A stretch of DNA of 59,554 bases from a virus. Taxonomy: Duplodnaviria; Caudoviricetes. The stretch covers positions 1 through 59,554 of the IMG/VR virus record IMGVR_UViG_3300001799_000004, one strand, 5' to 3'. A program made the translations under genes and the position numbers. Below the pieces are notes generated by a model. It was given only the letters and a program-made list of their open reading frames with translations. It was not told the DNA's origin and ran no database searches. Positions 25,356 through 35,289 of the stretch are shown piece by piece (the first letter of the stretch is position 1; the number at the start of each line of letters is the position of its first letter).

Positions 25356-26762
25356 ATGGAACAATCGACAGGATTCCTGCTCATCCTTGCCTATTTCGTG
25401 GCCGTTTTTCTTATCACGCGGATGATCGGACGAAAGAGTTCATCAAAACTTGATTATTTACTTGCAAACAGGGCTATACCAGGATGGTTGGCAGCTTTTT
25501 CAATCGCTGCAACATGGGTGTGGGCTCCCTCAATGTTTGTTGCCTCAGAGAAAGCTTTCACTTCAGGATGGGTAGGCGTTTTCTGGTTTGTAGTCCCCAA
25601 CGTGCTTACCCTTGTCATATTTGCCTACTTCGCAACATGGATGCGAAAGAAATATCCTGATGGGTGGACATTCTCGGATTATATCCGGGCCAAATACAGC
25701 AACCGCACCCATAACCTTTACCTTGTTGAAAGCTTCGGACTGCAAACACTCAGCCTTGCCGTGCAACTGCTTGCAGGAGCAACCATCATGTGGAAGATTA
25801 CCGGACTGCCTTTCTTGCTGACTACGATCCTGCTTGCAATCATTCCTTTGATTTACACTTTCTCCAAAGGACTCCGTGCAAGTGTCATTACCGACTACTG
25901 GCAGATGTTGTGGATAATTGTAGTCCTGCTGCTCGGTTTACCTTTTATGTTTATCAATGGCGGAGGCATGGAAACCCTCATTGAGGGATTATCAGGAAAA
26001 GCCGGCGATATAACAGGCATGTTCAACGGCAAAGGGCTGGCTGTAACACTTGCCTTTGGAATTCCCACTACCATAGGTCTGCTCTCCGGTACATTCGGGG
26101 ACCAGATGTTCTGGCAAAGGGTCTTTGCAATAAAACAGGGTCAGGTTAAAAAAGCTTTCCTCTGGGCAGCTGTAATATTCGCCTGTGTGCCCATTTCCTT
26201 AGCCATCTTTGGGTTCTTTGCTGCAGGTAAAGGTTTGGATATTCAGGACACACAACTTGTCAATGTTGGAGCCGTGATTGCTTTTACCCCTAACTGGTTC
26301 CTGTACCTGTTCATGGTGATGATCCTTTCAGGGCTTATATCAACTGTTGACAGCATCATATGTGCTGTTTCATCCGTCACTGGCCATGACCTCTACAACA
26401 GGATTAAAAAGCTTGACCTTATCGATGAAGTGGAGTTTGCAAAATGGTCAATGGTGTTTGTTACAATACTGGCCATCCTTATTGCTAACATTCCCGGGCT
26501 GAAGATACTTCACCTGTTTCTGATATATGGCACTCTGAGAGCCTCGGTGATGCTCCCTACTGCCTTTGCGATCAAAGGTATCAGAATGAGTGAACGGGGA
26601 TTGTTCTATGGCTTACTTACCAGTATGGTTGTTGGGCTTCCAATATTCGCCATTGGCAATTTCTCCGCCAACACAGTCCTAATCGTCACCGGCTCACTCT
26701 TTACCATCCTTGCCTCCGGAATCATCTCAATATCCCTGAAAGATGAAACCGCTAAAGTTTAA
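25356..26762 (+). CDS. Sodium:solute symporter (SSS/SLC5), DUR3-like
   Basis: About 13 hydrophobic segments; YLLANR, SIAATWVWA, GDQMFWQR, SGLISTVDS. Confidence 0.88.
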   Translation: MEQSTGFLLILAYFVAVFLITRMIGRKSSSKLDYLLANRAIPGWLAAFSIAATWVWAPSMFVASEKAFTSGWVGVFWFVVPNVLTLVIFAYFATWMRKKYPDGWTFSDYIRAKYSNRTHNLYLVESFGLQTLSLAVQLLAGATIMWKITGLPFLLTTILLAIIPLIYTFSKGLRASVITDYWQMLWIIVVLLLGLPFMFINGGGMETLIEGLSGKAGDITGMFNGKGLAVTLAFGIPTTIGLLSGTFGDQMFWQRVFAIKQGQVKKAFLWAAVIFACVPISLAIFGFFAAGKGLDIQDTQLVNVGAVIAFTPNWFLYLFMVMILSGLISTVDSIICAVSSVTGHDLYNRIKKLDLIDEVEFAKWSMVFVTILAILIANIPGLKILHLFLIYGTLRASVMLPTAFAIKGIRMSERGLFYGLLTSMVVGLPIFAIGNFSANTVLIVTGSLFTILASGIISISLKDETAKV

Positions 26763-27012
26763 GGAGCATAACCAACAGTTGGGTCCACCACAAGGCATGT
26801 CAGAAGATGAATGCGCTTCCCTGCCTGTCTTTACCGATGGCAAACAATGTATTTCATGCTGGGAGCTCTCGCCAGAAGAAATTGACAAGGTTAAGAGAAC
26901 CGGCCGGATATGGCTTTCTGTGATGTCTGGCAAGACTCAACCACCGGTCTGGCTGTCAGCTGAAGAAACGGTCTTTTTCGAAAAACCTGATTTCCCAATT
27001 CATCTAAACTGA
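26743..27012 (+). CDS. Conserved phage hypothetical protein
   Basis: LPV...ISCWELS.EE..GRIWL...QPPV. Confidence 0.65.
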   Translation: MKPLKFKEHNQQLGPPQGMSEDECASLPVFTDGKQCISCWELSPEEIDKVKRTGRIWLSVMSGKTQPPVWLSAEETVFFEKPDFPIHLN

Positions 27013-27013
27013 T

Positions 27014-27325
27014 ATGTACGACTTTGAGTCAACCAGGGTTAAACCCGATACACAGCTCGTAGCTGAAGTCCAAAAAGAATTCAAGCACCTTGGCCGGATA
27101 AGACTCAAGCCAGGCCACAGCCTTTTTGCCTTTAACACCAAAACAACACACCTGAAAAAGGTTGAAATTCAATCACAGGTAATGATTGACGTCAAAGGGC
27201 AAAAGAAAGAAACCAAAAGAGCATACCAGGAACCTGACACGGTCTACGTCACGGCACTCAACGCCAGGAACGCATTACGCAAAATTATTAATAGTTTCAA
27301 TCACCTAAAATCTAATCAAACATGA
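27014..27325 (+). CDS. Hypothetical protein
   Basis: Coupled ORF. Confidence 0.6.
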   Translation: MYDFESTRVKPDTQLVAEVQKEFKHLGRIRLKPGHSLFAFNTKTTHLKKVEIQSQVMIDVKGQKKETKRAYQEPDTVYVTALNARNALRKIINSFNHLKSNQT

Positions 27326-27921
27326 AAAGGTTCTTTTCTATTCTGATGATCCTGCTTGCGACAGTCAGCCTATCCGGGCAGGTTTATGACGGTATCACGC
27401 AACCGACAAGGTTCAGATACTGGCTTCCGCTGACAACCTCTGTAAACACCCCGGGATCGCTTACCGCTGCCCCTTTTATGGGTTACAAGGTTCAACCTGC
27501 CAACTGGATATCGTTCACACCGATACTCCAGTACAACTTCAACCGTGAAGCGGCCATGCCTCAGCTGTGGCTTAACGTGAACTATCAGCAAAAGTATTAC
27601 CTGCTCTTCAGGTCCATCTATGACCTCAAGACAGAAGCATTCAGCGAGACGGTTTCCGGTACGGTCAAACTCAATAGTTATATGGTTGACTTTACTTGGG
27701 ATAACCTATATCGTAGTGACGGGTTTTTAATCAATGATCGATTACAGATCCTTGCCGGCTATGCATGGAAGCATCTGGTACTAAATGCCGGGTACTCGAT
27801 AAGGGACCGACCGGGATTTGTGACCAATGCACGTGTGAAGCTTACCAGCCTGTCGTGGCTACAATTCAGGTACGATTCCGGTACAGATACATTCACTCTT
27901 TCAACAGCAATACATATCTGA
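27322..27921 (+). CDS. Exported protein, probable outer-membrane beta-barrel
   Basis: Sec signal MKRFFSILMILLATVSLSG; alternating hydrophobic/aromatic strands to the C-terminus. Confidence 0.55.
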   Translation: MKRFFSILMILLATVSLSGQVYDGITQPTRFRYWLPLTTSVNTPGSLTAAPFMGYKVQPANWISFTPILQYNFNREAAMPQLWLNVNYQQKYYLLFRSIYDLKTEAFSETVSGTVKLNSYMVDFTWDNLYRSDGFLINDRLQILAGYAWKHLVLNAGYSIRDRPGFVTNARVKLTSLSWLQFRYDSGTDTFTLSTAIHI

Positions 27922-34179: not shown

Positions 34180-34181
34180 TC

Positions 34182-35231
34182 ATGTACGATCTTGACCAGA
34201 ATAGTGCCCTGTTCCATAGAACTGAAGCGCACGCAAACAAGACACGTCTGGCTTATCTGGCAGCTATAAGGCGTTTGATTGCACTTGTTAAAATGATGGA
34301 CATTGATCCAAATGTACCATTCCGGTTCTCGGACTACCCAAAGCTGGACAAGGAGGCAAAGTTGATTTTCGAAATGCTTTATCGCGACATCTCAGGAGTT
34401 GTGATTAAAGGGATAGAAAAAGAATGGCAGGAGGCCAATGCTACCAATGACAACCGTGCTGAACGTGTTTTCAAACTGAAGAAGATCGGCAAGGTGCCTG
34501 AGGCATATCTTCAGCGTAATCTGGCTGCCAGGGATGCTTTTATTGCCAGAAAGACCGGCAAGGATGGGCTGATTGTAAGCAAACGTATCTGGAACTATGT
34601 AGGGCAGTTCAGGCAAGAGATGGAGATGGCTCTTGATATTGGCCTGTCAGATGGCCGGTCAGCTGCTGAATTGTCGCGTGATATCCGAAAGTACCTCAAC
34701 GAACCAGAAAGACTTTACCGGAGGGTACGGGACCACAGGGGCGTACTTCAGCTCTCGAAGAATGCGAAAGCTTACCATCCCGGGCAAGGTGTTTACAGGT
34801 CAAGTTACAAGAACGCCATGCGATTGACCAGGACAGAAACCAATATGGCATATAGAACAGCTGACCATAAACGCTGGCAGCAACTACCATTCATTGTTGG
34901 CTTTGAGGTGCGGCTAAGCAACAATCACCCTTCCATCGATATTTGTGATGACCTAAAAGGAAAATATCCAAAAGAGTTCATTTTTAATGGATGGCATCCT
35001 CAATGCCGGTGCCATGTGGTGGCCATACTCCCTACTGATGAAGAGTTTGAGGATATGCAGCAGCGATTACTTGATGGCGAGGGTGATATTGCGAGCCAGA
35101 GGAAAGTTGTAAGTGTTCCGGATGGGTTCAAAAAGTGGCTGAAAGACAACAAAGAACGCTACAAATCGGCTAAGGGGAAAGGCACATTACCATACTTCAT
35201 AAATGATAACCCTATCTTTGCCCGTGTGTAA
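34182..35231 (+). CDS. Minor head morphogenesis protein (MuF/gp7-like)
   Basis: RLTRTETNMAY, CDDL.G, WHPQCRC. Confidence 0.88.
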   Translation: MYDLDQNSALFHRTEAHANKTRLAYLAAIRRLIALVKMMDIDPNVPFRFSDYPKLDKEAKLIFEMLYRDISGVVIKGIEKEWQEANATNDNRAERVFKLKKIGKVPEAYLQRNLAARDAFIARKTGKDGLIVSKRIWNYVGQFRQEMEMALDIGLSDGRSAAELSRDIRKYLNEPERLYRRVRDHRGVLQLSKNAKAYHPGQGVYRSSYKNAMRLTRTETNMAYRTADHKRWQQLPFIVGFEVRLSNNHPSIDICDDLKGKYPKEFIFNGWHPQCRCHVVAILPTDEEFEDMQQRLLDGEGDIASQRKVVSVPDGFKKWLKDNKERYKSAKGKGTLPYFINDNPIFARV

Positions 35232-35256
35232 TGTGTTGTTAGTTTACTGGTTGGGG

Positions 35257-35289
35257 TCAGCTATCCGAAAGGGTAGCTGATTTTTTTTT
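35257..35289 (+). terminator. Rho-independent terminator ending the packaging operon
   Basis: TCAGCTATCC-GAAA-GGGTAGCTGA + T9. Confidence 0.85.

Follow-up and report, generated by a model that had tools for sequence, protein, structure and literature searches.

Why would a temperate tailed phage open its packaging operon with a solute transporter? The question is raised by the viral record IMGVR_UViG_3300001799_000004 of IMG/VR, a stretch of 59,554 bases that is called the window here. The record has an integrase fragment at its left end, followed by a replication module and by head and tail genes rightward. Between 25356 and 35231, twelve genes on the plus strand are tightly packed and end at a single strong terminator. 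The first of them encodes a sodium:solute symporter (SSS). Further along are an exported beta-barrel protein (OMP199), two PP-loop enzymes of the PAPS-reductase fold (PP1 and the IbrA-like protein) and two ParB-fold proteins (ParB1 and the IbrB-like protein). We call these genes the cassette, and the terminase, portal and head morphogenesis genes follow it directly (Table 1).

We tentatively propose that the cassette is a conserved late-operon unit of temperate tailed phages, in which small-molecule uptake could be combined with ATP-dependent ligation on phage nucleic acid during packaging, with DNA as the target; we hold this full reading somewhat short of probable. The narrower claim that the transporter feeds the PP-loop enzymes is, judging from gene order and co-occurrence, fairly probable. 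In the proposed pathway, a small, polar, nitrogen-bearing compound would be imported by the symporter in the inner membrane and, where an outer membrane exists, by the barrel. PP1 would adenylate a carboxyl or oxo group, from which AMP would be displaced by the imported compound or, in lineages without a transporter, by ammonia from an adjacent glutamine amidotransferase. The ParB-like proteins would bring the enzymes to phage DNA, and the product would be a modified phage genome that is poorly read by host nucleases. The DNA acceptor, the identity of the substrate and the anti-restriction role are points that we infer.

Co-occurrence of transporter and PP-loop/ParB genes

In a scan of IMG/VR, 92 contigs encoded a symporter relative (49-95% identity). 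Of these, 80 were retained and joined by one GenBank metagenomic phage record, giving 81 loci on which the window proteins were run by tblastn. Several loci are cut by contig ends, so the counts are lower bounds. OMP199 was found in 78 of the 81 loci, PP1 in 66, ParB1 in 69, the IbrB-like protein in 70 and the IbrA-like protein in 74, together with terS (74), terL (74), portal (69) and the MuF gene (67). The two small genes behind the symporter, orf89 and orf103, were each present in 4 of the 81 and are lineage-specific. The IbrB-like protein is the most conserved member of the cassette (58-98% identity in viral loci). The first-pass annotation had accepted that its proposal would suffer if the symporter did not travel with the PP-loop/ParB genes in other phages; it accompanies them in 66-74 of these 81 loci, and that objection falls away. 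Since many contigs are near-copies from one sample, the counts show conservation within a lineage and not independent events. Three loci at about 40% identity (L081, L129 and L130) carry the order SSS-PP1-ParB1-IbrA-IbrB without the barrel. The terS, terL and portal genes 3' of the cassette in L129 and L130 belong to PHROG families other than those of the window, and the L081 record ends inside the last of its five cassette genes.

The PP1 alignment was also scanned against one genome per bacterial species, and 79 loci were obtained. Ten are in Bacteroidota. The hosts are mostly Lachnospiraceae, Oscillospiraceae and other Clostridia, including one Clostridioides difficile chromosome, and Deinococcus, Chloroflexia, Chlorobiota and actinomycetes are minor hosts. 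Cultured strains with the cassette in prophages include Mediterranea massiliensis, Otoolea muris and Acetatifactor aquisgranensis. By tblastn, the symporter was present in 57 of the 79 loci, ParB1 in 66 and the IbrB-like and IbrA-like proteins in 72 each. A transporter adjoins PP1 in 71 of the 79: an SSS symporter in 57, a short SSS relative in 11 and a permease of the ATP-binding cassette (ABC) type in 3. In the 48 SSS loci without a barrel, the distance from the end of the SSS match to the PP1 match is -25 to +43 nt.

The short transporter, found in the 11 loci without a detectable SSS, has 330-390 aa and 6-7 predicted membrane segments and is encoded directly 5' of PP1. Alignment of ten of the eleven with the SSS profile by hhalign (probability 78.7%, E 1.7e-05, 205 columns) makes it remote kin of the symporter. 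In the ABC variant, the permease has its best NCBIfam matches to SaoP, TauC and SsuC and is accompanied by an NMT1/SsuA-type binding protein. The permease lies 5' and the binding protein 3' of PP1 in L156, and both lie 3' of PP1 in L152. In L209 (9959-11542), a metagenome-assembled genome (MAG) of Chloroflexia, PP1 and the permease form one open reading frame (ORF) of 527 aa, with BPD_transp_1 at residues 351-519, followed by an NMT1-type lipoprotein. A class-II glutamine amidotransferase is encoded directly 3' of PP1 in L167 and L152, and a cupin 5' of PP1 in L195 and L199. A glutamine amidotransferase or a cupin can stand in for a missing transporter.

A tree of PP1 was built from 73 rows; L166 and L205 were omitted because their matched stretch contains stops, and L186, L204, L209, L210 and L212 because their matches are shorter than 200 residues. 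There are two clades, one of Bacteroidota loci that carry both symporter and barrel (support 99) and one of Bacillota loci (support 92), with the short-transporter loci nested within the latter. The ABC loci and those without a transporter fall outside both clades. Since only about three changes of the SSS label are needed on this tree, the best reading of the SSS link is a single old gain with later retention. The link would then have been kept through divergence to 35-45% identity and across a host switch between one- and two-membrane cells. On the same tree, the ABC link is a second, independent gain, and the only clearly independent second case. The import coupling claimed in the first-pass annotation thus survives in part: the symporter is tied to the PP-loop/ParB genes at about 40% identity, before unrelated packaging modules and in Bacillota prophages, with an ABC importer swapped in elsewhere. 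The separability of the cassette genes speaks against a strict coupling.

The cassette keeps its place beside packaging genes as well. terL lies 3' of it in 48 of the 79 genome loci (tblastn), and when 10 of 24 other IbrB-like loci were sampled, 9 had a large terminase of GpA, Terminase_6, Terminase_3 or Terminase_1 type. The terminase genes just 3' of the cassette belong to at least five different families; from this variety, the cassette appears bound to the head of the packaging module and not to one packaging mechanism. At the other end, 70 of 74 viral loci have a co-oriented ORF 5' of the symporter (median gap 113 nt), and in 36 loci this ORF is a homologue of the resolvase-like protein at 17503-17880 of the window. 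From the co-oriented neighbour and the gap, the symporter is as a rule the first gene of the late operon in these loci.

Membrane proteins and the case for import

The window symporter belongs to the sodium:solute symporter family, with 107.1 bits against PF00474 (cut-off 22.8) over profile positions 1-405 of 406. It misses the cut-off of 184 for the TIGR00813 superfamily (126.4 bits), and the named substrate subfamilies tried were not reached (PanF 68.7 vs 328, PutP 49.7 vs 515, ActP 23.8 vs 1099). Automatic names given in the ESM Atlas, such as pantothenate permease, are not supported by the PanF score. The nearest solved relatives are DUR3 (1e-19) and CHT1 (2.3e-14). Among solved structures, urea and choline carriers lie nearest to the symporter, and the ABC permease comes closest to SaoP and to two taurine/sulfonate carriers, TauC and SsuC; as a weak guess, both importer types hint at a small polar compound that bears nitrogen. 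Apart from the prophage copy adjoining PP1, none of five host genomes had a close homologue of the symporter, and the next best match had an E value of 2.9e-16 and 26% identity; on these comparisons the symporter clade is specific to the cassette.

One symporter cluster, from Bacteroides ovatus, is carried by at least 1000 contigs. Bacteroides-type symporters (L005, L009, L024 and L026; proteins P0019-P0120) have 543-588 aa and end in a tail of about 90 residues, charged and probably helical, that is missing from the shorter window protein. No relation was found between this tail and orf89 or orf103.

OMP199 has 199 residues, with a signal peptide and an invariant Q20 at the predicted mature end. 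In Bacteroidota, a glutamine as a rule follows the signal-peptidase cut. No Pfam or NCBIfam family matched the protein. Its AlphaFold2 (AF2) model (mean predicted local distance difference test, pLDDT, 86.4) has twelve long strands, and Foldseek matched it to KdgM (template modelling (TM) score by target 0.64-0.65, root-mean-square deviation 4.0) and NanC (0.51-0.53), and also to intimin/invasin barrels and designed 12-strand barrels. With about 180 mature residues in a 12-stranded barrel model, and a gene adjoining that of its own inner-membrane transporter, OMP199 resembles KdgM and NanC. It differs from them in being only 5-12% identical in the structural alignments, and non-channel intimin/invasin barrels match equally well. 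Among the bacterial genome loci, OMP199 was found in 9 of the 10 Bacteroidota and in 0 of the 69 others. Such confinement is expected if a solute is carried across the outer membrane, since Bacillota hosts have no outer membrane. The first-pass suggestion of transport across both membranes therefore fits both the predicted barrel and its distribution. A phage-encoded pair of outer-membrane channel and inner-membrane transporter would be unusual in itself.

Several observations weigh against our proposal. In L045, L046, L049 and L053, terS comes straight after an intact symporter and barrel and all four PP-loop/ParB genes are missing, probably through one deletion event (L044 is cut), and five other loci (L060-L062, L064 and L065) lack PP1 only; remnants of cassette genes are kept in L025, L054, L068 and L080. 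Of 223 phage records with an IbrA-like protein, at most two have the symporter and one has PP1. Riemerella phage vB_RanS_PJN03 (ON245412.1), the closest isolated phage (TerL 60% and IbrA-like protein 61% identical), shares the order ParB-ParB-PAPS reductase-terS-terL-portal but is without symporter, barrel and PP1. The ParB-ParB-PP-loop core is therefore taken to be older, with these three genes as an add-on, and either of the two PP-loop enzymes may be the user of the import. Six loci with full context, from Deinococcus, actinomycetes and Chlorobiota, have no transporter in the 5 kb upstream and in the genes just 3' of PP1. The other two transporter-less loci are L205, cut by a contig end 278 nt before PP1, and L212, a weak 28% match in a 953-residue ORF that is probably not PP1. 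The PP1-permease fusion is known from one MAG only, and the few changes of the SSS label on the PP1 tree mean that the association is mostly inherited. One Bacteroidaceae MAG (L208), on a very long PP1 branch, has the short transporter and no barrel. In L199 the cassette is followed by an aldehyde dehydrogenase (PF00171, 3e-136) and no terminase; this locus (8569-14969, Actinomadura miaoliensis) has the order ParB-cupin-PP1-IbrA-IbrB and may not be a phage context.

Part of this evidence would also be explained if the symporter and barrel were an independent nutrient-uptake moron or auxiliary metabolic gene at a permissive spot, unrelated to the PP-loop/ParB genes. The loci that keep the transporter pair without the enzymes or lack PP1 only, and the many IbrA-like genes without a symporter, agree with that explanation. 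So does the uptake of unrelated cargo at the same junction of the window: on the minus strand at 19373-24852, between the replication module and the late operon, lie genes for an S8 subtilase of 1264 aa and a protein of 542 aa, each with a Por_Secre_tail domain for the type IX secretion system (T9SS). Their sorting domains indicate a Bacteroidota host, and since this cargo is absent from 81 of 81 related loci it is taken as a lineage-specific moron insert at the symporter junction. An independent moron is nevertheless unlikely in our view. Neither a terminator nor a strand switch lies between the symporter and the enzyme genes, the symporter and PP1 genes touch or overlap in 48 loci, and they are paired in Bacteroidota as well as in Bacillota, before terminases of several families. 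Moreover, a second, unrelated importer type stands beside PP1, once fused to it, and none of the five hosts has a close cellular paralogue of the symporter clade.

PP-loop and ParB proteins and their possible chemistry

PP1 has the invariant motifs AWSGGKDS, LGRRxxDGN and SPxxxWxHE and no invariant cysteine. It forms a separate family with its nearest relatives in viruses and prophages, and no NCBIfam model matched it. Its AF2 model has a pLDDT of 92.7. The IbrA-like protein keeps SGGKDS, DEE and GxRxxES invariant across phyla, with one nearly invariant cysteine; a Pfam scan at E <= 0.01 gave PAPS_reduct alone, with no second C-terminal domain. E. coli IbrA is taken here to consist of PAPS_reduct and a C-terminal domain, presumably DUF3440. 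The label IbrA-like rests on the PAPS_reduct domain and the ParB partner. The IbrB-like protein scores 30.6 bits against PF02195 (cut-off 26.3), and ParB1 matches ParB PHROGs only, with no Pfam match above cut-off. The predicted complex of PP1 and ParB1 from paired alignments scored 0.06 (mark 0.32), which is evidence neither way.

In L129, a protein that joins a ParB-like domain to a DNA methyltransferase (phrog_498 2.2e-47, phrog_12047 8.9e-33) is encoded at 1339-2778, 5' of the cassette; the ParB part of phrog_498 is matched by the window ParB1 as well. A third ParB-type protein of the window, with 611 aa and the domains ParB_N and HTH_ParB, is encoded in the replication module (9549-11384, plus strand), so that the phage has three ParB-fold genes.

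The two PP-loop enzymes might be read as CysH-like sulfur-assimilation auxiliary genes, with a transporter that imports a sulfur compound and boosts host sulfur metabolism. PHROG 424 and 2302, which they match, are labelled PAPS reductase or auxiliary metabolic gene, and the ABC variant resembles taurine/sulfonate importers. In a passage of PMC11318856, the PHROG 424 and 2302 genes of a Clostridium clostridioforme (Lachnospiraceae) prophage are filed under 'host metabolism'. The family models speak the other way: the curated CysH/CysD models gave scores of 16-34 bits, far under their cut-offs of 154-413, and CysH membership of the IbrA-like protein failed (NF002537 16.3 vs 154, TIGR00434 16.1 vs 165). 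The scarcity of conserved cysteines in both enzymes, and a fixed pairing with ParB-fold proteins and terminase genes that has no place in sulfate reduction, make sulfur assimilation very improbable.

Among known systems, one close likeness is to IbrA/IbrB-like pairs: at 29259-30895 of the window, a ParB_N protein and then a PAPS_reduct protein are encoded directly 5' of terS, and relatives annotated as IbrA include those of Flavobacterium phage 23T and Rhizobium phage L338C. The window differs in doubling the pair with PP1 and ParB1 and in placing a dedicated importer ahead. A second likeness is to DndB/DndC (also SspD and BrxP), where a ParB-superfamily protein adjoins an ATP pyrophosphatase of the PAPS-reductase fold that acts on DNA. 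DndB is described as a ParB-superfamily member in part of PMC12839542. Cassette proteins or their relatives gave weak matches to DndC and BrxP models. For DndC (TIGR03183), neither PP-loop protein of the window matched at E <= 0.01, and the L156 relative scored 20.5 bits against 290, far under the cut-off. Unlike the Dnd system, the cassette has no cysteine desulfurase (none was found among the window genes scanned), no DndD/E and no restriction partner, and it is poor in conserved cysteines. It is also phage-borne and would be expressed late and fed by an importer or amidotransferase and not by cysteine.

The third likeness is to PP-loop amidotransferases and base-aminating enzymes (asparagine synthetase B type, GMP synthase, TilS and QueC), which share the PP-loop chemistry; an amidotransferase stands beside PP1 in two lineages. 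PP1 differs as a separate family whose fold matches to such enzymes are at a generic level. Since the cassette enzymes lack a cysteine set and PP1 has this amidotransferase neighbour, adenylation followed by attack of a nitrogen nucleophile would be favoured over sulfur transfer.

The linkage of transporter and PP1 is silent on the acceptor, and the enzymes could have a target other than phage DNA: RNA (tRNA included), a small metabolite such as a modified nucleotide or a cofactor used late in infection, or the nucleotide pool. The transporter would still supply the substrate. Foldseek with the PP1 model returned PAPS/APS reductases, TtuA, TilS (tRNA thiolases, lysidine synthase) and the GMP synthase ATPPase, all at a generic level (TM 0.4-0.55), and the structural neighbours outside phages in the ESM Atlas were archaeal fusions of PUA and PAPS-reductase domains. 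The pairing of a PP-loop enzyme with a glutamine amidotransferase, as in L167 and L152, is the architecture of small-molecule amidotransferases. Two points must be added to those that count against our proposal: Foldseek and the ESM Atlas gave generic PAPS-reductase-fold neighbours only, from which no substrate can be read, and PP-loop enzymes of this fold act on tRNA and small molecules too. A DNA-directed step nevertheless fits better with a cassette that abuts terS/terL across terminase families and has two ParB-fold proteins as fixed partners (of the 79 genome loci, 66 have ParB1 and 72 the IbrB-like protein), and family scans of the window proteins found no RNA-binding domain. We therefore consider a non-DNA target rather unlikely.

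Alternatively, the ParB-like and PP-loop proteins could regulate late transcription or the initiation of packaging, as the name IbrA/IbrB implies, and the transporter would bring a signal or cofactor and not a building block. The position of the cassette at the head of the late operon, directly 5' of terS, is in line with regulation, and ParB-fold proteins are DNA-binding, NTP-dependent switches. A regulator would not be expected to keep the full catalytic motifs in both PP-loop proteins over deep divergence. The amidotransferase, cupin and binding-protein genes that join the cassette elsewhere look pathway-like and not switch-like, and close relatives with the same terminase dispense with the cassette. 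Regulation is thus quite unlikely, and ATP-dependent ligation on phage DNA is kept as the preferred, still tentative, reading of the enzymes.

Operon surroundings and meaning for phage biology

The features of the operon are listed in Table 1. Family scans upheld the gene identities first assigned to the symporter, the two small ORFs, the exported protein, the PP-loop and ParB proteins, the IbrA-like protein and the terS, terL, portal and MuF genes. Of the first description of twelve co-oriented genes with one terminator and with overlaps or gaps of at most 12 nt, the genes, the terminator and the gaps (<=12 nt) stand; the overlaps are longer than described, up to 20 nt (SSS/orf89) and 14 nt (IbrA/terS and terS/terL). 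The PP1 start was judged from homologues, the longest ORF beginning at 27765, and the ParB1 start was likewise picked from homologues.

Table 1. Positions in the window of the operon genes and the adjoining non-coding features
Feature	Position	Strand	Evidence
503-nt non-coding stretch 5' of symporter, presumed late promoter region	24853..25355	.	no ORF >=60 aa
SSS symporter, 468 aa, first operon gene	25356..26762	+	PF00474 1.3e-30; TIGR00813 1.5e-36; phrog_20720 4e-117
orf89, small soluble phage protein, outside conserved core	26743..27012	+	phrog_11885 1.4e-07
orf103, small protein, outside conserved core	27014..27325	+	weak phrog_21065 match 1.1e-04
OMP199, exported, predicted 12-stranded outer-membrane beta-barrel, candidate channel	27322..27921	+	signal peptide; AF2 model; no sequence family
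PP1, PP-loop ATP pyrophosphatase of PAPS-reductase fold, 269 aa	27921..28730	+	phrog_424 2.3e-11; AF2 model
ParB1, ParB N-terminal-domain protein, C-terminal CPHCG motif	28714..29292	+	phrog_620 1.2e-35; phrog_498 1.7e-26; alignment
ParB2 (IbrB-like), ParB/Srx fold; alternative start 29295	29259..29816	+	PF02195 3.5e-07; phrog_2159 6e-60
PP2 (IbrA-like), second PP-loop/PAPS-reductase-fold enzyme, 360 aa	29813..30895	+	PF01507 3.4e-09; phrog_2302 8.7e-73
terS, small terminase subunit	30882..31295	+	phrog_4044 2e-09; phrog_309; phrog_24579
terL, large terminase subunit	31282..32754	+	phrog_38 8.1e-87; PF17289 1.3e-08
portal, SPP1 Gp6 type	32767..34179	+	PF05133 1.1e-30
MuF-like head morphogenesis protein	34182..35231	+	phrog_7625 1.2e-64; TIGR01641 7e-06
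intrinsic terminator closing operon	35253..35284	+	14-pair stem, 4-nt loop, T run

A sigma-70 promoter scan gave sites no more numerous than in shuffled sequence, with a model that does not cover Bacteroidota promoters. Megablast of the operon DNA against the phage collection returned no match, and a look-up of expression data for 24900-34800 listed no RNA holder. PADLOC gave the cassette no defence-system assignment and returned only a weak BrxP match for the IbrA-like protein and a methyltransferase-type ParB match for ParB1. The MuF protein matched PHROG 16625, labelled 'Bxa ADP-ribosyl transferase', at 2.8e-108 in its MuF part; a transferase domain was not evident, the best stretch spanning profile positions 223-375 of 869.

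Between the MuF gene and the head genes, on the minus strand at 35783-39126 and 39823-40698, are genes for a type I-like specificity subunit (HsdS), a 645-aa N6-adenine methylase and a shorter N6_Mtase ORF. The methylase consists of HSDR_N_2 and N6_Mtase; its best PADLOC match was a type II methyltransferase, with mad2/mad5 matches as well. No restriction subunit was seen beside these genes at 35783-40698. By tblastn, HsdS relatives were found in 0 of the 81 related loci and an HsdM-like protein in one, as a weak match.

No paper linking a transporter to PP-loop/ParB genes was found in the literature covered, which largely excludes subscription journals and supplementary gene tables. Gene pairs of ParB and PAPS reductase are widespread next to phage terminases. 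Genome surveys mostly class them under sulfur or 'host metabolism', and the cassette gives them a testable context. An importer beside the pair, swapped for an amidotransferase elsewhere, supports a pathway of adenylation and ligation with an external substrate. It is possible, if doubtful, that temperate phages of gut anaerobes (Bacteroides, Prevotella, Lachnospiraceae and Oscillospiraceae) import a small molecule by an uptake route of their own, which in Bacteroidota has a phage-encoded outer-membrane pore, and attach it covalently to their DNA during packaging by a ParB-guided PP-loop enzyme, as a new class of hypermodification with a building block taken from the gut lumen and not from the cell's own synthesis, and that relatives without a transporter install an amino group from glutamine. 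If DNA is indeed the target, the modification would depend on what the environment supplies, which would bear on the host range of gut phages and on the reading of phage genomes by sequencing.

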